In this document: in pieces, positions 5,653 through 15,884 of the stretch
Numbering within the stretch: position 1 is the first letter of the stretch
Layout of the letters: every line of letters begins with the position of its first letter
Origin: Capsulimonadaceae bacterium
GTDB lineage: Bacteria; Armatimonadota; Armatimonadia; Armatimonadales; Capsulimonadaceae
Direction: 5' to 3'
Assembly (NCBI GenBank): GCA_036504535.1
Contig: DASXUY010000059.1
Location: forward strand, 1-24,067
Length of the DNA stretch: 24,067 bases
Made by a program: the position numbers and the translations under genes
The notes under the pieces: generated by a model
Database searches by the model: none
What the model saw: only the letters and a program-made list of their open reading frames with translations
What the model was told of the DNA's origin: nothing

Positions 5653-5653
<1 letters not shown>
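5584..5653. repeat. Three consecutive hairpins in the metY-metX spacer, including a 17-bp perfect palindrome
   Basis: Hairpin 1: CCTTCCCG/CGGGAAGG (5584-5602). Hairpin 2: GTCATTTCGACGCGAGA/TCTCGCGTCGAAATGAC (5604-5639, 2-nt centre). Hairpin 3: ACGGAT/ATCCGT (5638-5653), which overlaps the metY stop. Confidence 0.6.
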
Positions 5654-6981
<1,328 letters not shown>

Positions 6982-7151
6982 TCAGCGATTGACATCATCG
7001 ACAATCCAGCAGCCAACTCAAGGAACGAGGCGTAATTTTGTAAAGGTAGCCTAATTCTACCTAATTCCTATGGGAATAGCACGGTTACTAGGAAAAGATG
7101 TGGAATTATTTCTAGCAGGATGGATATAAGCGCCACGAATTGCAAGCGCAA

Positions 7152-7363
7152 CAAGCTCCACGCCACCCCTACACCGATCCAACGAAACGTTGGCACCCAG
7201 CCGGACAGGCTGCCCCTCGGCGAGCAGTCTTACCCGCCATCGTCGAGCCAAACATCCCCGGCCCGCCAAGCGGTGGTCGGTGACCTCGCTTCCGAGCGCA
7301 ACAACAGAGTCCCCGCCTGCGGGGACAGCGAGCCATGCGAGCAGGGGGGCGTTTGGGGCTATT
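7152..7363 (+). repeat. Intergenic repeat family, full-length copy A
   Basis: It shares its start (CAAGC..CCCCTACACCGATCCAACGnnnCGTTGGC) and its end (GCCAAGnGGTGGTCGG...ACAACAGAGTCCCnGC..GCGGGG....GGGGC.TATTT) with copy C. It abuts the vapC stop codon. Confidence 0.6.
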
Positions 7364-7810
7364 TCAGGAAAGGGCAAGCAGATCATCGAGGGCGACGACG
7401 GTAATGTCGGTAACCCGCTTGAGGTGAAGGTCATTTGTGACGAAAATGTCGCAATTCGCGGCGATTGCTGTAGCGATGTGAATGGCGTCCGGTGTCTTGA
7501 GGCCGTATGAAGCCCGTAGCCTCGCGGCTTGTGCGGCAATCGACTGCGAAACGTCAATGAGTTGAAAATGGCGGCTTGTCGTCAGTAACGCCGTGTACTC
7601 AGCAACGAGAGACGAGTTGTCCATTTGAATGGGCCTGACGAGCACCTCTGTCAGGGCTATCGCTGATGCGAACGCACACGCACTCGCGTCAATGTGCTGG
7701 AGAATGCGGCGAACGACGCCAGAATAGGTGGGATGCTGCTCAACGAAATAAATAATCGGAACGGTGTCGAGTCCGATTCGGGAAGCATTGAGTATAGCTT
7801 GAAAAGTCAT
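7364..7810 (-). CDS. vapC: PIN-domain toxin (VapC-type ribonuclease)
   Basis: The four PIN acidic positions are recognisable (LDTVPIIYF, LTEVL, TPDAIHIATA, VTNDLHL). ATG 7810 overlaps the antitoxin stop in an ATGA junction (7807-7810). The ORF-track start at 7831 is less likely. Confidence 0.85.
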   Translation of the reverse strand: MTFQAILNASRIGLDTVPIIYFVEQHPTYSGVVRRILQHIDASACAFASAIALTEVLVRPIQMDNSSLVAEYTALLTTSRHFQLIDVSQSIAAQAARLRASYGLKTPDAIHIATAIAANCDIFVTNDLHLKRVTDITVVALDDLLALS

Positions 7811-8046
7811 ACGCTGCTCGGCTCGTCCCACTCAGCCCGTAGCGCACTAACATACTCTGCGACATCGACACCTTTCCAAATCTCAGCCCCAAGTCCGTCC
7901 AGTTCAAGAAGACTTCGTTGGCCTGGTACGTCCTGTTTCGTGTCCAGCCCAAGATCCCGCGAGACGAGATCAAGCACTTTGCGCCGCTCCTCAACAGATA
8001 ACGGTCGCACGTAAGTTTCATACACGGTTTCGGCTATCGTCCCCAT
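7807..8046 (-). CDS. Antitoxin partner of the PIN toxin (79 aa)
   Basis: A small ORF immediately upstream of vapC and translationally coupled to it. ATG 8046 (MGTIAETVYETYVRPLSVEERRKVL...) aligns with the start of the paralogous copy at 8460. The track start at 8067 is TTG. Confidence 0.7.
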   Translation of the reverse strand: MGTIAETVYETYVRPLSVEERRKVLDLVSRDLGLDTKQDVPGQRSLLELDGLGAEIWKGVDVAEYVSALRAEWDEPSSV

Positions 8047-8129
8047 AAGGCTAACCCTTCTCTGCAACGCCGTCTATGTTCATTATACAATACCCAAACC
8101 GTCAATTTTATCGCCCGAATCCTGTATCC

Positions 8130-8220
8130 CAAACGCCTCACCACCCCTACACCGATCCAACGGAACGTTGGCGCCGTCCGCGCAGGACGCCCGCCCGGCG
8201 AGGGCATCTTCTCCCCAGTC
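8130..8220 (+). repeat. Intergenic repeat family, truncated copy B
   Basis: 8144-8214 matches copy C (11156-11226) at 68 of 71 positions by hand alignment. The half of the element that adjoins the gene in copies A and C is missing. Confidence 0.65.
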
Positions 8221-8460
8221 TCATTGCGCTTTTGGCGCATCCCACTCGTCACGCTCATCGTTGACGAACTGGTCCATGTCTCCACCCTGCCACAGCTCCG
8301 CCCCGAGTCCGCACAACTCGCTCAACTTTTGCTTCGCCTTCGGAGGAGCGTCGCCTGGGCTGGCTAGATCGTGCCTAGCAAGCTCGACCAACGCGGCCCC
8401 GTCCTCCGGTCACAGGGAACGAACATATGTCTCATAAACGCGAACCGCAGCACTAGACAT
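8221..8460 (-). pseudogene. Second copy of the antitoxin gene, interrupted by an in-frame TGA at codon 17, with no toxin gene downstream
   Basis: The minus strand reads MSSAAVRVYETYVRSL*PEDGAALVELARHDLASPGDAPPKAKQKLSELCGLGAELWQGGDMDQFVNDERDEWDAPKAQ*. That is 80 codons, the same length as the intact antitoxin and colinear with it (VYETYVR, LGAE[IL]W, EWD). GGGAGG lies 7 nt upstream of the ATG. The TGA is at 8410-8412. Confidence 0.65.
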
Positions 8461-8666: not shown

Positions 8667-10238
8667 TTACCTACTGTTAAGCCTCTGTGTTCGTATCAAC
8701 GCGATCTTGTCTGGAATACCAAAGCAATACTCGTCTTTCGTCACAGCAAGTTTTTCAATACGTTCTAGATCAGATTCGGTAAAGTAATTCGGACAGTACT
8801 GTAGCAATCCACTTAACAGCATGAGTACGTTGCTCAGACCAAACATCCGGTCGTCGCCTGCAGGCAGCGCTGAGCTAGCCTTCTCAAGCGCTTCACCCAA
8901 GAAGCCGAGCCTCATAAGTACGGTAACGATGAAATACGATATTCCTAAATATCCGTTCGCCGGGTTTAGCCTCTCCAGTAGAATAGCAACAATGCGGAGT
9001 TTGTCTGCGGATGACGATATTCGATTATAATACGCAACGAGACCCTCCACATTTTCAGATACTATGGTTGCTTCTTCCGCCGGGCAGCCCGCATTTGGCC
9101 GTGGCGGCGGAGTGATGGCGCCGCGTCCCAACACTGTGCGTCCTCCCTGGACCACGGAAATGCTTCCGAGTCCCCCAACTCGACGTCCGCAGCGCCTATA
9201 GTGATCTGCTTCCACTTTGAGAAAAGATACGACATCTCGTTCGACAGGATCGGCTATCGAATATAGGAACTCTTCAGGTTCTTTCTTAGCCTTGGGAGAG
9301 TCGAATGATCGGGACCTGAACGATACTCTTTTTAGGACATGCTTGTTTCCAAACTGGTCAAAGAGGATTACGGCATGAGCAATAAAGTGTGAATTAGCGT
9401 CTATTACTGGTGGCAGCAGCCAGAAATTAACTGAAACAGTCCGTGACTGTCCTGCGGGTATATCAAAAGTGCCCAAGATGGAATCCGATGCGTCCCCGCC
9501 AACCATTACGACGCCGACTTCGCGCTTAGTCCCCAAGAAACCGTGCGCAAGCACTGCCTTCGTTATCCTGATTGAATAGCTCGACACATTAGTCGCAAGT
9601 ACGAGCCCAGCGATTTGCATAGCAGGTCGATCGATGTTACCGCCCAAATGCCACCAGCACGAACCTAACGGCTTTTCGGCAAGTCGCAGGGTACAGGCGG
9701 GAACGGCTGAGGATACGTCTCTATGGCGAGAATGCTGCTCGCGCTGATGGTTTAGGCTTGAAGCATTAGGAAAGCTGGCCTGTTTTGTACCAGCACTTAC
9801 GAATTGCGCCGATAGGCCATGGCGGCCGTCGTGTACCCGTTCCAAAATCTTTCGTGCCACCTCGTCCACACCAGCCCTTGAATTCACCGCCACAGCGTCT
9901 GCGAGAGGAGGTGAATACTTGAGTACATCTTCCTTTTCTACTCCGTGCCAGATTGGAAGGATTATTCGTTCACCATCAATCATCTCTCGCGCTACGAGGC
10001 CGTCCAATTCCCGACGAGTCCATTTCTTTGCAAAGAAATCTTTGCTTAAGACCACAATACCGAAACGTGACAGAGAAAGGCCGTTATCTATTGATTCCGA
10101 AAGACTATCTCCAATCCGCAGCGAGATCTCGTCGTACCAAACTGAAAGGTCCGCTTCTAGCAGCTTTTTCGCGAGCGGACGTACAAAGTCGTTCTTGTCT
10201 TCCCATGCATGGCTAATGAATGTGTCGTAGATTTTCAT
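8667..10238 (-). CDS. TIR-domain protein with an unassigned ~370-aa C-terminal region
   Basis: From ATG 10238 it reads MKIYDTFISHAWEDKNDFVRPLAKKLLEADLSVWYDEISLRIGDSL...GIVVLSKDFFAKKWTRRELDGLV, the bacterial TIR layout with the W-x3-E segment. The ORF-track start at 10316 is TTG. Hand-counted lines in the gene are 40-45 % GC. Confidence 0.85.
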   Translation of the reverse strand: MKIYDTFISHAWEDKNDFVRPLAKKLLEADLSVWYDEISLRIGDSLSESIDNGLSLSRFGIVVLSKDFFAKKWTRRELDGLVAREMIDGERIILPIWHGVEKEDVLKYSPPLADAVAVNSRAGVDEVARKILERVHDGRHGLSAQFVSAGTKQASFPNASSLNHQREQHSRHRDVSSAVPACTLRLAEKPLGSCWWHLGGNIDRPAMQIAGLVLATNVSSYSIRITKAVLAHGFLGTKREVGVVMVGGDASDSILGTFDIPAGQSRTVSVNFWLLPPVIDANSHFIAHAVILFDQFGNKHVLKRVSFRSRSFDSPKAKKEPEEFLYSIADPVERDVVSFLKVEADHYRRCGRRVGGLGSISVVQGGRTVLGRGAITPPPRPNAGCPAEEATIVSENVEGLVAYYNRISSSADKLRIVAILLERLNPANGYLGISYFIVTVLMRLGFLGEALEKASSALPAGDDRMFGLSNVLMLLSGLLQYCPNYFTESDLERIEKLAVTKDEYCFGIPDKIALIRTQRLNSR

Positions 10239-10556
10239 GTTCGCTAAGCTGCCCGTTTGGAATTTAAGCCTACAAAGGATGCCGCTTGTGTAAGCTGGAA
10301 GTTTAGAAGCGCTCAAATTGTGGTGGTGTGAAAGACTCGTGACAATCCAACGACAACCTCGACAAATATGTGCTCACATTGAAAGATTGTACTCGCCTTT
10401 ACAATACCCTCCAGATAATGGCTATGTTGCAACGCAAGCGTTGACTACCTTATCTCGGGAGCCCTACTCCGCTGAAGTAGCAATGGGAACTAATACAACG
10501 AAAAACATTACGCAAGTTCGTCATTATTATATATTTTGAAATTTAGTAGTAATTAG

Positions 10557-10585
10557 TTCACACTAAGATATAAACGTGCTATAAT
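10557..10585 (+). promoter_or_regulatory. Near-consensus sigma70-type promoter facing away from the TIR gene
   Basis: TTCACA (10557-10562), a 17-nt spacer, then TATAAT (10580-10585). A very AT-rich UP-like tract lies upstream (10501-10560, about 22 % GC). The -10 box sits inside the inverted repeat GTGCTAT-AATA-ATAGCAC (10576-10593). Confidence 0.4.
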
Positions 10586-10889
10586 AATAGCACAAGCGAA
10601 TCACCCAAAGCGGCCGCCTAAATGCGTTCAAACGCATCAGCACCTTTACAACCTGACACAACACGTTCGCACGCAGTCACAACCATACGCGGGGGTCGCG
10701 GAATAATCCGCAACTAGCAGCAGAGATAGCTGGACCGAACACCCGAGACGGTAACAACTCGTGACCAGCTTCCGCGCCAGTCCTATGGGTCGTAGACCCA
10801 ATCCTCAATAACTAGCCATGGCTTTCAAGCCGTGGTGGCTTCGTCATCGACTAATTACCAACACCTGGTCAAATCCGCCCAATCCGACC

Positions 10890-10929
10890 GTCGCGCAAAA
10901 CCGTAACCTAACCCACAATTTTGCGCGAC
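10890..10929. repeat. 11-bp perfect inverted repeat in the non-coding tract
   Basis: GTCGCGCAAAA (10890-10900) and TTTTGCGCGAC (10919-10929) are separated by 18 nt. The AATTTTGC motif recurs at 10917, 10951 and 11014, and the palindrome GTTGCAATTTTGCAAC lies at 11009-11024. Confidence 0.6.
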
Positions 10930-11065
10930 CTTTGCAGCCACTATTCGCCGAATTTTGCGCACTTTCGCCATCACCACGCTCAATACGCAATGCAAAAAAA
11001 CGAATCGTGTTGCAATTTTGCAACGCAATCAGCCACCAACTCACCCCGCGATTACAACTCTGACT

Positions 11066-11091
11066 CCCCTCTCCTTATCGTAGGAGAGGGG
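11066..11091. repeat. GC-rich hairpin CCCCTCTCC/GGAGAGGGG
   Basis: 9-bp stem (11066-11074 with 11083-11091), loop TTATCGTA, followed by CTGGGGGTGAGG. Confidence 0.5.
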
Positions 11092-11141
11092 CTGGGGGTG
11101 AGGTCATCGTCAACAACATCAAGCATTAGGTGAAGTACTCC

Positions 11142-11314
11142 CAAGCCCCCCGCCGCCCCTACAACGATCCAACGACACGTTGGCGCCGTCCGCGCAGGAC
11201 GCCCGCCCGGCGAGGGCATCTTCTCCTCCAAAACATCCCGCTCGCCTCGCCAAGAGGTGGTCGGACAACAGAGTCCCTGCTTGCGGGGGCGGTGAGCTTT
11301 GAGCGAGCGGGGGC
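11142..11314 (+). repeat. Intergenic repeat family, copy C
   Basis: Same 5' block as copy B and same 3' block as copy A. It ends at the mutS stop codon (CTA at 11315-11317). Hairpin GTCCCTGC-TT-GCGGGGGC at 11273-11290. Confidence 0.6.
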
Positions 11315-13963
11315 CTATTTCTCCCCGATCCGCCGCTTCATATCGTACAGCAGCGTCAGCGCCTCGATTGGGCTGAGCGTGGCCACATCTAGCTGCTCGA
11401 TCTCGTCGATCACGGGGTGACGCTCGGTCTCGAACAGCGTCAGCTGAAGCTTCTTCTTCGTGGACTGGATATCGACACCCTTCTTACCGCTCTGCTTGTC
11501 GCGAGCTTCGAGGCCCTTGAGGATCTCGGCGGCGCGCTGCAGGACCGTCTCCGGGAGGCCGGCGAGGCGGGCGACCTGCACACCATACGATTTGTCGGTG
11601 CCGCCGGGCATGATCTTGCGCAGCCAGACAATGTGGTCTCCCTGCTCTTTCACCGCGATCCGGTAGTTCTTGGCCCCGTCCAGCTGCTTTTCGAGATCGT
11701 TGAGCTGGTGGTAATGCGTCGCAAACAACGTTTTCGCGCCGATTGCGTGCAAGTATTCGGCAATGGCCCACGCGAGCGCGAGGCCGTCGAATGTGCTGGT
11801 GCCGCGACCGACTTCGTCGAGGACCACCAAGCTGCGGTCGGTAGCATTGTTAAGGATATTCGCGGTCTCGTTCATCTCGACCATGAATGTGGACTGGCCC
11901 GACGCTAAATCGTCCTGCGCCCCCACCCGCGTGAAGATGCGGTCCACGAGCCCAATCGTGGCGCTGTCGGCGGGGATGAACGAACCCATCTGGGCGAGCA
12001 GCACACACACCGCAACCTGACGCAAGTACGTAGACTTGCCTGCGGCGTTGGGGCCGGTGATGATATGCAGCCGCTCCTTGTCGCCGTCCATGGATGCGTC
12101 GTTCGGCACAAACATCGTGCCGGAGTGCAGCTGTTCGACCACCGGATGGCGCGCGTTCTTCAAGATCAGAATCTGGCTGTCGTCGATCACTGGCCGCGAG
12201 AAACGAAGTTGGATCGCCGTCTCCGCGAGGCCGGACAGCACGTCGATACGCGAAATGGCGGCGGCAAGCTTCAACAGCGCGCCGGACCAGCGTTCGGCAA
12301 TCAGTTCGCGAAGCTGAGTGAAGAGCCGGTATTCCAGTTCCACAATCCGCTCCTCGGCACCAAGCACCTGCGCTTCGTGCTCCTTGAGGGCGGGCGTGAT
12401 AAACCGTTCCGCGTTAGCCGTGGTCTGCTTGCGGATATAGTCGTCGGGCACCGCCGCGATATTGATCTTGCTGACCTCGATATAGTAGCCAAAGACGTTG
12501 TTGTAGCCAACCTTGAGGGTGCGAACTCCGGTACGCTCCCGCTCAGCCTCTTCGATCGCGGCGATAAACTGCTTTCCGCCCGACCGAAGCACGCGCAGCT
12601 CATCGAGATCGGCGTTGAACCCGTCCTTGATCAGCCCGCCGTCGCGCAGCACCAGCGGAGGATCGTCGGCGACGGCGCGGGTGAGCAGGTCCAGCAACTC
12701 CACGGGCGCGGCGGCGATATTGTCCCGCTCGGCAGACAGCGACGTCCCTTCGCGAAGCCGTCCCAGCGACGCAGTCAGCGCCCCGGCCTGCTCGATTGAG
12801 TTCCGCAGGGCGATCAGGTCCCGCGCATTGGCCGCCCCGGAGCAGACCCGCGCCGTGAGCCGCTCAAGGTCGGACACCCCGCGCAGCGCATCCCGCGTGT
12901 CACCGCGCAGCAGCGAGTCTGCGGCGAACTCGCCCACCGCATCGTGGCGCTCACGGATACTGTCGATACTCAGCAGCGGCTGGTCGAGCCACTTACGCAA
13001 GAGCCGTCCGCCCATCGATGTGATCGTCTTGTCGACGATATGAATCAAGCTCTTGGTGCGAGATCCGTCAAGCTGAGACTGCGTCAGCTCAAGGTTGCGG
13101 CGTGTGGCGGCATCGAGCACCATAAAATGCTCCGTCGAATACGCGCCCAGGGTCCGAATATGGGTCAATGCGCTCTGGTGGGTCGCCTTGACATAGTCAA
13201 GCAGCAGCGCTGCGGCATCCACCCCAGCGCTGAGGTCTTCGCACCCAAACCCGCGCAGCGATTGCGTGCCGAAATGGTCCAACAACTGCTGGCGGGTCGA
13301 TCGGCGCTGCTCTTTGAATGCGTGCAGCGTGACCACGGCGGAACAGTTGGCACGGATGCCGTCGATCAACGCAGGGTCGGCGTCGGGGCTCACCAGGCAC
13401 TCGGACGGCTGCAACCGTACTATCTCCTCGATCACCTTCTCGATCCCGCGATCGTAAGGTATCTCGGTGGTTAGGAACTCGCCGGTACTCACATCGACGA
13501 CGCCCACTCCGCTGGGGACCCGTTCACCGGTCACCGCGGCGACAAGGTAGTTGTTGCGACGCGCATCCAGCATCGCGTCCTCGACCACGGTGCCGGGGGT
13601 GAGGACACGGGTTACACGACGCTTCACCAGGCCCTTGGCGAGTTTCGGATCCTCCACCTGATCGCACAAAGCGACCTTGAACCCGCGCGTGATCAGCCGC
13701 GCGATATACCGCTCGACCGCATGGTACGGCACCCCCGCCATCGGGATTCGCCCACCATGCTGCTTGTCCTCGCGACCGGTGAGCGTGATCTCAAGCTCCC
13801 GCGAAACGATTTCGGCGTCGACACCATACGCCTCGAAGAAGTCGCCGACACGCATCAGCAGGATGATATCAGGGCGCTCCTCCTTGACCTCAAAATACTG
13901 CCGCATCAGCGGCGTAAGGGCATCGAGAGAGTACTGGGAGTTGTCGGTGGCGGGTTTGGTCAT
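11315..13963 (-). CDS. mutS: DNA mismatch repair protein MutS (canonical MutS1)
   Basis: 882 aa. It has the GDFFEAYG mismatch-recognition Phe-x-Glu motif, GPNAAGKST Walker A, STFMVEM, and DEVGRGTSTFDG Walker B. Confidence 0.95.
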   Translation of the reverse strand: MTKPATDNSQYSLDALTPLMRQYFEVKEERPDIILLMRVGDFFEAYGVDAEIVSRELEITLTGREDKQHGGRIPMAGVPYHAVERYIARLITRGFKVALCDQVEDPKLAKGLVKRRVTRVLTPGTVVEDAMLDARRNNYLVAAVTGERVPSGVGVVDVSTGEFLTTEIPYDRGIEKVIEEIVRLQPSECLVSPDADPALIDGIRANCSAVVTLHAFKEQRRSTRQQLLDHFGTQSLRGFGCEDLSAGVDAAALLLDYVKATHQSALTHIRTLGAYSTEHFMVLDAATRRNLELTQSQLDGSRTKSLIHIVDKTITSMGGRLLRKWLDQPLLSIDSIRERHDAVGEFAADSLLRGDTRDALRGVSDLERLTARVCSGAANARDLIALRNSIEQAGALTASLGRLREGTSLSAERDNIAAAPVELLDLLTRAVADDPPLVLRDGGLIKDGFNADLDELRVLRSGGKQFIAAIEEAERERTGVRTLKVGYNNVFGYYIEVSKINIAAVPDDYIRKQTTANAERFITPALKEHEAQVLGAEERIVELEYRLFTQLRELIAERWSGALLKLAAAISRIDVLSGLAETAIQLRFSRPVIDDSQILILKNARHPVVEQLHSGTMFVPNDASMDGDKERLHIITGPNAAGKSTYLRQVAVCVLLAQMGSFIPADSATIGLVDRIFTRVGAQDDLASGQSTFMVEMNETANILNNATDRSLVVLDEVGRGTSTFDGLALAWAIAEYLHAIGAKTLFATHYHQLNDLEKQLDGAKNYRIAVKEQGDHIVWLRKIMPGGTDKSYGVQVARLAGLPETVLQRAAEILKGLEARDKQSGKKGVDIQSTKKKLQLTLFETERHPVIDEIEQLDVATLSPIEALTLLYDMKRRIGEK

Positions 13964-15083: not shown

Positions 15084-15884
15084 CTACTTACCCGGAGAGC
15101 TAGCGAAACTGGCGAGCAGATCGTCAATGGTGGTGTTCAGAATACGGAAGTCGTCTGGGTCACAATCATCACTCTGCAGAAAAGCCGTGAACTTGGCGTC
15201 GTCTATGACGGATTTATCAGTAGCGTCAACCAGGCGCTCAGGATCCATATAGTCTCCGTGCCGCGTCACTGACATAAACTTGCGGTGAAGCCTTGAATAG
15301 TTAACCGAAAAATAGGTGTTGGGCCAACACGAATAGTCATCGCAATCCTCCTCCACAATGCCATATTCAAAGCTGTCGGGCGGACAATAGAGCAGCAGCA
15401 TATCGTCGAGTTCGTAGAGTTGGATTGGGTAAACGTCAAAGCCTAGATTTCCGTCAATAGTGATGACGCGACGCGGAGCGTATGTCTCCTCTATGGCATA
15501 TCCATCATCCAAGATTGCCCGATTACGCTCACGGCGGGCGGAAAAGGCGGGGGAGTTGATTTCAGAAACTTCGTAGAAGCATTCCTGAGCGTTAACCGCG
15601 CCATAGACCGCAAATAAAACAGCTAAGGCTACTGAAGCTACCGATTTGCTAGGATCAAAATAGCATGCCACCACGGCGAAAAGTGCAATCAGCGCGAATA
15701 CTATGCCCTTAATGCCTAACTGCGATGTGAGAAAGGGTGGCGGAGGAGTGGATCTTTGTCGCCAAGCTGCGGCCTCCTCAGGCGTGAATGGCCGCTCGTT
15801 AGTCACTATTGGTGGCGCATCCGGTGGGCGAGGACGCGGTGCAATTTCTGGTTCCGCCGGCCCGTTGTATTGAGTCTCATCCAT
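15084..15884 (-). CDS. Paralog 2 of the Pro-rich two-TM protein family, function unknown
   Basis: MDETQYNGPAEPEIAPRPRPPDAPPIVTNERPFTPEEAAAW, then two hydrophobic segments (GIVFALIALFAVVACYF and VASVALAVLFAVYGAV). The C-terminal domain contains AILDDGYAIEETYAPRRV, LYELDD, WPNTYFSVNYSRLHR and ILNTTIDDLLASF. Confidence 0.8.
   Translation of the reverse strand: MDETQYNGPAEPEIAPRPRPPDAPPIVTNERPFTPEEAAAWRQRSTPPPPFLTSQLGIKGIVFALIALFAVVACYFDPSKSVASVALAVLFAVYGAVNAQECFYEVSEINSPAFSARRERNRAILDDGYAIEETYAPRRVITIDGNLGFDVYPIQLYELDDMLLLYCPPDSFEYGIVEEDCDDYSCWPNTYFSVNYSRLHRKFMSVTRHGDYMDPERLVDATDKSVIDDAKFTAFLQSDDCDPDDFRILNTTIDDLLASFASSPGK

Follow-up and report, generated by a model that had tools for sequence, protein, structure and literature searches.

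TIR-domain enzymes that cleave NAD+ (NADases) depend on self-association, and the SpbK protein of the Bacillus subtilis element ICEBs1 is a single-protein defence in which a phage portal protein clusters the TIR domains (PMC12847820, PMC11984713). The subject of this analysis is a gene at positions 8667-10238, minus strand, of a 24,067-nucleotide (nt) stretch of contig DASXUY010000059.1 from a Capsulimonadaceae bacterium (assembly GCA_036504535.1); the whole stretch is called the window below. The predicted product, called the fusion protein, joins an N-terminal TIR domain to a C-terminal region that belongs to a large family of mostly membrane-anchored proteins. It resembles SpbK in being one polypeptide, without a partner gene, on foreign DNA. 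In SpbK a phage component is bound by the non-TIR domain, clustering switches the TIR domain on, and the infection is aborted as NAD+ is lost; this is the model we propose, by analogy, for the fusion protein. In SpbK, however, the recognition domain is N-terminal and the TIR domain C-terminal, an order that is reversed in the fusion protein, and the recognition modules of the two are unrelated in size and in predicted fold. Since no SpbK entry stood among the PDB sequence matches of the fusion TIR at E<=1e-3, the two TIR domains are not close. The fusion protein would work like SpbK while being unrelated to it outside the TIR fold.

The nearest solved TIR domains are those of AbTir, BtTir, PdTIR and TcpB (8g83, 7uwg, 7uxr, 3h16, 4lqc). 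Proteins of this group are about 250-300 amino acids (aa) long; their TIR domain is C-terminal and follows a coiled coil or a domain of another kind. The fusion protein shares with them a TIR domain about 60% identical to that of AbTir, with identical catalytic Glu, cyclisation Trp and BB-loop residues, but carries it at the N-terminus, followed by a 385-aa region of another family.

Other known systems exchange their effectors. In the work of Tal et al. from 2021 and in the CBASS literature, PycTM and PycTIR, TM- and TIR-SAVED, and TM- and TIR-STING (TM, transmembrane) are said to be interchangeable N-terminal killing modules. The family behind the C-terminal region is similar in that the same body carries either membrane helices or a TIR domain at its N-terminus. 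It differs from the Pycsar and CBASS effectors in three ways: no cyclase or other signal-making gene accompanies the family or lies in the window, its body is not a cyclic-nucleotide-binding, SAVED or STING fold, and its TIR version is a single known case.

The remaining TIR systems resemble the fusion protein in the TIR part only. A ThsB-like TIR domain is present, as in Thoeris, but an adjacent ThsA effector is absent from the 24 kb. Thoeris type II pairs a ThsB TIR protein with a membrane-anchored Macro ThsA, and two loci described below, in which a TIR gene precedes a membrane-anchored family member, look like such a pair; the family nevertheless has no Macro or SLOG domain and mostly no TIR neighbour, and the fusion is one protein from which membrane helices are absent. 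The Aga_TIR model of SPARTA matches residues 7-79 only, with no APAZ region and no Piwi gene in the window. The TIR-NLR model of the TIR-STAND proteins (Avs, bNACHT) matches residues 5-92 only, with no NTPase profile or fold. For type XII retrons (reverse transcriptase, RT, with TIR), Retron_TIR scores 86.9 bits against a cut-off of 600, again in the TIR part only, and there is no RT gene and no Rfam match upstream. The best PADLOC models, PDC-S66 and ThsB1, also match the TIR domain alone, and the remainder of the protein has no PADLOC match.

The original prediction had placed the architecture outside the systems it could name, and this stood: the fusion protein lacks the features by which Thoeris, CBASS, Pycsar, SPARTA, TIR-STAND and RT-TIR are defined. 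It had also reported no TIR partner gene alongside, and Pfam and PADLOC searches of the 24 kb indeed turned up no gene that looks like part of Thoeris, CBASS or Pycsar or like an Argonaute, nor any other candidate TIR partner or known defence protein. In kind it would be a modular single-protein TIR defence, with a familiar effector logic.

Gene model and TIR domain

The maximal minus-strand open reading frame (ORF), 8667-10316, is uninterrupted and would encode 549 aa from a TTG start at 10316 (ORF list). The gene was taken as 8667-10238 because three observations agree: the ATG at 10238 is used by the JGI gene call on the source contig (140 kb), the NCBI-sourced entry is also 523 aa long (named TIR domain protein, from a Capsulimonadaceae metagenome-assembled genome, MAG), and in the nearest TIR homologues the TIR domain begins at residue 2-4. 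The longer frame given in the original prediction is real, and the product quoted there starts at this same ATG. In the Logan assembly of run SRR11794808, a 2,650-base-pair contig around the gene is identical in sequence to the JGI contig, so the fusion is no artefact of one assembler. The gene and the features of its TIR part are as follows.

8667-10238, minus strand: the fusion gene, an intact frame of 1,572 nt with its ATG start at 10238 and its TAA stop at 8667-8669, product 523 aa
10239-10316, minus strand: additional 5' part of the maximal ORF, in frame and starting with TTG, probably untranslated (homologue TIR starts, JGI call, 523-aa entry)
9828-10229, minus strand: TIR domain, aa 4-137, of the AbTir/PdTIR/TcpB type (Pfam, PDB-sequence and PADLOC matches)
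10008-10010, minus strand: codon of E77, equivalent to the AbTir catalytic E208 (alignment of WTRRELDG with WTNYELDG)
10020-10022, minus strand: codon of W73, equivalent to AbTir W204 (alignment to AbTir)
10101-10112, minus strand: BB-loop G43-D44-S45-L46, equivalent to AbTir G174-L177 (alignment to AbTir)

Both the TIR fold and the W-x3-E stretch had been read from the bare sequence, and both were borne out. Pfam TIR_2 (E 4.4e-19, 69.6 bits, cut-off 28) and Pfam TIR (E 5.1e-11, 43.1 bits, cut-off 21.3) match above their gathering scores, and the TIR matches span residues 4-109. Among PDB sequences, phmmer matched AbTir 8g83 best (E 3.6e-45, about 60% identity over 134 residues), and PdTIR 3h16 (E 1.3e-39), TcpB 4lqc (E 1.5e-35) and BtTir were matched too. 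The PDC-S66 (E 1.2e-60) and ThsB1 (E 1.1e-37) matches in PADLOC are confined to residues 2-133 of the protein and to the C-terminal third of both models. The RT-TIR, Aga-TIR, TIR-NLR and Retron_TIR matches from PADLOC and NCBIfam likewise cover TIR residues alone.

The W-x3-E stretch aligns with W204 and E208 of AbTir, and the residues kept in the fusion protein are E208 (E77), W204 (W73), T205, K202, G174 (G43), S176 (S45) and L177; T74 and K72 of the fusion protein count among the conserved ones. AbTir loses its activity with E208A and has none or very little with G174A or S176A, and it requires W204 for cyclisation to the cyclic ADP-ribose (ADPR) isomer 2'cADPR (bioRxiv 10.1101/2022.05.07.491051). 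From this conservation the TIR domain looks catalytically competent and NAD-cleaving, and by every sequence criterion applied it is a member of the AbTir-type group of TIR NADases.

Domain matches in the 120 best TIR homologues fell mainly into two layouts. About 73 are AbTir-like, with an N-terminal extension and a C-terminal TIR domain, and in about 41 an N-terminal TIR domain is followed by at least 60 more residues, with unrelated C-terminal domains. The closest homologues, P0246 and P0247 (66-67% identity), share a different C-terminal domain with P0263 and P0299; P0267 and P0282 have yet other ones, and none of these C-terminal domains was matched in PADLOC. These comparisons suggest that the fusion protein is one of many combinations of this TIR clade with a variable partner domain. 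The domain shared by P0246, P0247, P0263 and P0299 is about 220 aa long, carries the motif VVTDEWWLD and represents another uncharacterised N-terminal-TIR fusion family.

Predicted structure of the C-terminal region

Residues 138-523 had no significant match in Pfam, NCBIfam or PADLOC, with nothing beyond about residue 135, which agrees with the earlier statement that no known module could be recognised there. A search of PDB sequences with the family profile gave no match below E 0.66. The AlphaFold2 model of the region, built on the family alignment, reached a predicted local distance difference test (pLDDT) of 89.9 and a predicted TM score (pTM) of 0.79; the helical half modelled alone reached a pLDDT of 87.4. 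The model contains the beta-rich middle and the helical tail that had been suspected from the sequence. Its parts are listed here in N- to C-terminal order.

9690-9827, minus strand: linker, aa 138-183, rich in Ser, Ala, Gln and His, with no homologue, in place of the membrane helix of relatives
9312-9689, minus strand: immunoglobulin (Ig)-like beta-sandwich, aa 184-309, fast-evolving, eight strands, pLDDT >90
9162-9248, minus strand: long helix, aa 331-350, then the loop CGRRVGGLGS, aa 350-359 (alignment A1 and models)
9087-9128, minus strand: loop GRGAITPPPRPNAG, which replaces the family's G-x-G-x-DSW-x-P-[ND]-SP-x-NQ and is 4 residues shorter (alignment, mismatch list)
8673-9056, minus strand: TPR-like seven-helix bundle, aa 395-522, where the family is most conserved (models, pLDDT about 90-98)
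8895-8951, minus strand: conserved hydrophobic helix YLGISYFIVTVLMRLGFLG, aa 430-448, hydropathy 1.59 and so borderline, a bundle helix in the model
8802-8843, minus strand: conserved hydrophobic helix FGLSNVLMLLSGLL, aa 466-479, with nearly invariant FGLSN-LMLL-GLL columns

The linker is 46 residues long and of low complexity; the family profile match begins at residue 173, and the pLDDT is 65 over residues 173-182. The invariant R and GGLGS of the loop after the long helix correspond to columns R180 and G183-S187 of alignment A1. A small hairpin also precedes the bundle, and the loop GRGAITPPPRPNAG is the lowest-confidence part of both models.

Two hydrophobic stretches had been pointed out in the tail, and these exist at aa 430-448 and 466-479, modelled as helices of the helical domain. 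The helix equivalent to the first passes the TM threshold in 40 of 151 relatives, and the second (hydropathy 1.84) has 14 residues, too short for spanning a membrane alone. No 19-aa window of the fusion protein reaches a hydropathy of 1.6, and the protein has no signal peptide or membrane segment.

Foldseek searches of PDB and BFVD returned generic sandwiches only (ApaG, PmoB/PCuAC, DUF4352/DUF5067). With the helical half modelled alone, Foldseek returned designed helical repeats and TPR proteins only, at E>=0.014 and TM score <=0.40. Going by the models, the fold of the C-terminal region seems confident and novel, and both of its parts look to be of a protein-binding kind, with no enzyme-like match. 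One Pfam match, to Phage_TAC_14, was rejected as chance: at E 0.016 it falls short of its cut-off, and it occurs in only one of the 85 members of the alignment, the fusion protein itself.

The protein family behind the C-terminal region

The C-terminal region had been called unassignable, and this did not hold, since it is part of a large uncharacterised family. Residues 136-523, used as the query, matched 85 proteins; none of these has a name, and only the fusion protein itself has a Pfam domain. A profile search of 1.84 billion cluster representatives then gave at least 1,213 clusters at E<=1e-3, with 183 at E<=1e-30. The fusion protein matches the family profile at E 3.9e-117 over residues 173-522, and it keeps invariant columns including the GGLGS loop. 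None of the 85 aligned members has a PADLOC match or a meaningful Pfam match. The literature search found no paper on the TIR fusion architecture, and PDC-S66 is mentioned only in genome surveys. As far as the searched libraries and literature show, the family appears to be undescribed.

Family members are typically 380-450 aa long and have one or two hydrophobic helices at the start, after which comes a segment rich in Lys and Arg. An N-terminal membrane helix is present in 128 of 151 full-length-like members (about 85%), 53 of which have two such segments. The positive-inside rule places the sandwich and helical body of these membrane-anchored members on the cytoplasmic side, because the Lys/Arg-rich segments follow the membrane helices. 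A few members have C-terminal coiled-coil extensions, and some consist of the helical half alone. In the fusion protein, the TIR domain and linker occupy the position of the membrane helix and Lys/Arg-rich segment, and no segment reaches the TM threshold.

A TIR domain, or any other recognisable N-terminal domain, was found in none of the other 149 representatives among the matches listed, nor in a Pfam scan of ten long or atypical representatives, and the 79 metagenome loci with a family gene contained no N-terminal fusion. In a neighbour-joining tree, the fusion protein branches four nodes away from the midpoint root, and its sister group is a clade of 24 membrane-anchored members. Since it nests this deeply beside membrane-anchored relatives, the parsimonious interpretation of the sequences is that TIR and linker replaced a membrane anchor.

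The modules evolve at different rates. Median pairwise identity in the family is 24% in the sandwich, against 54% in the helix-loop part and 59% in the bundle, and faster evolution of the sandwich is what one would expect if it is a recognition module. Searches of IMG/VR, INPHARED phages and PLSDB plasmids gave no relatives, and a phage or plasmid origin was rejected on that ground.

Genomic contexts of the family

The family gene was located in 80 metagenome loci, which form 68 non-redundant groups, and at least 3 kb of flanking DNA was available in 42. Contexts were counted with crude ORF calls of our own and summary hidden Markov model tables. No conserved neighbour was found: the upstream and downstream neighbours of family members are mutually unrelated, and a conserved partner gene was rejected for this reason. 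In this respect the family behaves like a unit of one gene.

Pfam and PADLOC searches of the 150 ORFs nearest to the family genes identified six integrases, two DDE transposases, three ResIII helicases, five or more DNA methylases and, separately from these, a type III Mod/Res pair. Defence-type reverse transcriptases, BrxC, a CAP12/PCTIR TIR protein and a SAVED protein also occur there, as do PIN and DUF4238 proteins.

Some loci are worth describing singly. In L139 and L136, mod, an unassigned gene, the family gene, a second unassigned gene and res follow one another on the same strand, never more than 12 nt apart, and L131 and L138 are similar. The family gene of L172 is flanked by genes for a ResIII-type helicase and a C5 methylase, and in L157 it is ahead of hsdM-hsdS-hsdR. 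Two members follow TIR genes directly. In L134 (6891-9023) a membrane-anchored member begins 55 nt after a PDC-S35/CAP12-PCTIR TIR gene, and in L164 (6508-9029) the start of a membrane-anchored member overlaps the stop of a 440-aa coiled-coil TIR_2 gene. Mobile DNA is represented by L001 and L002, where the member is beside an integrase in a conjugative element, by L109, which falls in the same group of integrase, integrative-conjugative-element and plasmid cargo, and by L010, a plasmid-like DNA with RepA, ParA and a PIN toxin-antitoxin pair. The member in L008 is near methylase, Fic, ArdC and ResIII genes. In L004, L006 and L011 the members are among housekeeping genes.

The distribution is patchy, over contigs that come from many metagenome samples and vary widely in base composition, with no conserved synteny. 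By association, the gene contexts described above show the pattern expected of defence genes. The original prediction had proposed a self-contained sensor-effector defence protein, and that idea gains indirect support from the restriction-modification and mobile-element genes around family members.

Two side observations belong to these loci. The TIR genes at L134 and L164 are of other subfamilies than the fusion TIR, and with the fusion they make three independent TIR associations. In L139 (1267-8564) the two genes that flank the membrane-anchored member encode 292 aa and 252 aa and have no Pfam or PADLOC match.

Proposed function and alternative explanations

The reading we favour, at about an even chance, is that the fusion is a single-polypeptide anti-phage protein of the abortive-infection type, in which a TIR domain was swapped onto the body of a defence-island family. 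A mechanism of this kind is proposed because the family contexts and the conserved catalytic residues support a TIR NADase defence. The beta-sandwich would recognise an infection cue, most likely a phage protein, and recognition would let the conserved helical half drive self-association. This would put the TIR domains into the two-stranded assembly needed to form active sites, after which NAD+ would be cleaved to nicotinamide and ADPR or a cyclic ADPR isomer, and the infected cell would be stopped. In the membrane-anchored relatives, the same switch would cluster membrane helices instead. We infer all four of the trigger (most likely a phage protein), the oligomerisation, the NAD+ depletion and the defence phenotype.

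Several points weigh against this reading. The architecture is a singleton, found in one of 85 relatives and in none of the 79 metagenome loci. The terminal branch of the fusion protein is the second-longest in the tree (0.335, median 0.099), and the protein is off consensus at 16 of 80 highly conserved positions, where the median is 3. The nearly invariant DSW-x-P-[ND]-SP-x-NQ has been lost to AIT-PPPRPNAG with a 4-residue deletion, and an R at a 99% conserved site, A1 position 174, has become H. This divergence could be adaptation to a new N-terminal module or the decay of an accidental chimera. The highly conserved charged and Gly-rich residues of the helical half would suit a site for ligand binding or catalysis better than a passive scaffold, and W73 suggests a cyclase product, possibly a signal over plain NAD+ depletion. 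The family contexts are association only, and at the locus itself the vapBC pair is the sole conflict-type neighbour in the window, with no classical defence island.

One alternative, which we think improbable, is that the TIR domain is a signal generator: once the C-terminal part had sensed infection, it would make a cyclic ADPR isomer, like ThsB and AbTir, and an effector encoded elsewhere would read it, as in a dispersed Thoeris-like system. This fits the retention of W73, the cyclisation residue in AbTir, the ThsB1 match of the TIR domain (E 1.1e-37) and the members at L134 and L164 that come directly after TIR genes, an arrangement resembling Thoeris type II with its TIR protein and membrane-anchored effector. 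The 24 kb, however, hold no ThsA-type gene (SIR2-SLOG, TM-Macro) or other receiver candidate, most family members stand alone with no TIR nearby, and TIR domains of the AbTir type deplete NAD+ effectively unaided too.

Evolutionary accident is also an unlikely explanation. Here a deletion or recombination would have made a chimeric ORF out of a TIR gene and a family member, with selection for a joint function lost or not yet begun, in a decaying islet. The singleton architecture, the excess changes at conserved positions together with the lost loop, and the long terminal branch all speak for such an origin, as do the truncated antitoxin gene immediately downstream and the lack of a significant promoter prediction. 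Decay is harder to reconcile with an intact 1,572-nt frame in which all checked catalytic and interface residues of the TIR domain are conserved and the GGLGS loop and hydrophobic helices are kept. GC content at third codon positions (GC3) is uniform across the modules as well, and the C-terminal part folds confidently in silico.

It is quite unlikely that the protein has no part in immunity, the family being a membrane-associated regulatory or housekeeping factor and the TIR domain an interaction adaptor or a Tcp-like effector against eukaryotic hosts. The closest solved TIR domains include those of TcpB and PdTIR, which are treated in the literature as host-interference proteins, and the members at L004, L006 and L011 are among housekeeping genes. 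Against this, the source is an environmental Capsulimonadaceae MAG, neither a signal peptide nor a membrane segment is present in the fusion protein, many genes for restriction-modification, TIR proteins, reverse transcriptases and integrases surround family members, and the distribution is patchy over compositionally very different contigs, with no conserved synteny.

That the helical half itself kills, as a latent membrane-inserting hairpin of the colicin or Bcl-2 type with the TM helix or TIR domain as an anchor or extra module, is very improbable: it has in its favour two very conserved hydrophobic helices with a short amphipathic helix and loop between them, the first passing the membrane-helix threshold in 40 of the 151 relatives, but Foldseek gives TPR-like proteins and designed repeats with no pore-forming fold, the second helix has 14 residues only, the model puts both helices in a soluble bundle with high confidence, and no reason is given for a TIR domain replacing an anchor.

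If the fusion is functional as the single-polypeptide defence that we favour, it would be a single-chain TIR NADase defence with a sensor unlike any described. It would also serve as a "Rosetta stone" for more than 1,000 clusters of membrane-anchored proteins that have no Pfam, NCBIfam, PADLOC or PDB match and that occur in uncultured bacteria, within restriction-modification operons and mobile elements. A soluble, enzyme-reporting member would ease study of the trigger and switch compared with the membrane forms, NAD+ loss being easily measured. Even a dead chimera would document effector exchange in defence genes.

A bolder reading, which we consider doubtful, extends this to all of the at least 1,213 clusters. 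The exchange of TM for TIR would mark the whole family as a new and widespread single-gene immune family with a new activation switch in the helical half, coupling a hypervariable Ig-like receptor to interchangeable killing modules, which would be membrane helices mostly and a TIR NADase in the fusion protein. The switch could then be the invariant E..E..R-x2-GGLGS..S..R..Y..Y, acting through ligand binding or oligomerisation. On this reading, members also seem capable of joining type III restriction-modification operons.

The surrounding locus

The fusion gene lies between mutS and a sulfhydrylase gene, in a segment bounded by repeats. The features of this interval are listed in minus-strand order.

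11315-13963, minus strand: mutS, GC content 62.3%, GC3 0.80
11139-11314, no strand: repeat copy C, immediately after the 3' end of mutS, where the inserted segment has its upper limit
10239-11138, no strand: gene-free stretch upstream of the TIR gene, 900 nt, GC 47.8% (composition, no gene call)
8221-8391, minus strand: remnant of a vapB-type antitoxin gene, 56 aa, without a toxin partner, 36% identical to vapB residues 31-85 (E 9e-12)
8127-8214, no strand: repeat copy B, immediately after the 3' end of the vapB remnant, where the segment with the TIR gene has its lower limit
7364-8067, minus strand: vapB-vapC, PIN toxin E 4.7e-15
7149-7350, no strand: repeat copy A, 3' of vapC (repeat comparison)
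5653-6945, minus strand: O-acetylhomoserine sulfhydrylase-type gene (metY), downstream of repeat A in minus-strand order

The fusion gene has a GC content of 49.9% and a GC3 of 0.49, and its housekeeping neighbours have a GC3 of 0.69-0.80. Foreign composition, as originally claimed, is thus confirmed; of the hand-counted figures, 40-45% GC for the gene was too low, and the contrast with mutS stood. By part, GC3 is 0.49 in the TIR domain, 0.51 in the sandwich and 0.48 in the helical half, and this uniformity suggests that the fusion arrived as one unit. The upstream low-GC stretch was probably acquired together with the gene.

As neighbours of the gene, a dead antitoxin gene, a vapBC module and 0.8 kb of non-coding DNA had been named. 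The first two are there, the remnant being related to the C-terminal 55 aa of vapB, and the third needs correction, since the gene-free stretch upstream measures 1,076 nt (10239-11314). Because a truncated antitoxin gene without its toxin adjoins an intact vapBC pair, a partial deletion of a second toxin-antitoxin cassette beside the TIR gene is suggested. In the intact pair, the vapB gene encodes an 86-aa antitoxin without a Pfam match and overlaps the toxin gene.

The repeat copies are about 90-200 nt long. Identity is 91% between copies B and C, over 88 nt, and 65% between A and B, and the core is present three times where none is expected by chance. They could be duplicated insertion sites or copies of a genome-wide intergenic repeat. 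Each of the three is directly 3' of a minus-strand unit, and between mutS and the sulfhydrylase gene they mark off two cassettes. The palindrome CCAACGnnACGTTGG is part of the repeat, and a GC-rich hairpin is also found in copies A and C.

The upstream stretch has no Rfam family at gathering score. A structured RNA or retron-like element was rejected there, the only sub-threshold match being a eukaryotic microRNA family with 27 bits against a cut-off of 84, which is chance. Comparison of the islet with the sequences collected for this analysis showed no remnants of a TIR N-domain, of an integrase or of family neighbours beyond one chance-level match. A promoter and terminator scan near the TIR gene gave counts no higher than in shuffled sequence. 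A MutS-seeded contig scan, which was swamped by universal MutS motifs, returned distant taxa only (at most 57% identity), with no relatives of metY, vapC or the TIR protein there.

Two further observations concern the DNA toward and beyond mutS. In the AT-rich stretch upstream of the TIR gene, a near-consensus sigma-70-like site at 10557-10585 on the plus strand (TTCACA, 17 nt, TATAAT, with an upstream TG; 11 of 12 positions) faces away from that gene and toward the 3' end of mutS; shuffled sequence contains such sites in at least equal number. On the minus strand at 15084-15884, a 266-aa ORF without a Pfam or PADLOC match has a GC3 of 0.53, compared with 0.64-0.80 in the flanking genes, and may be another foreign gene upstream of mutS.

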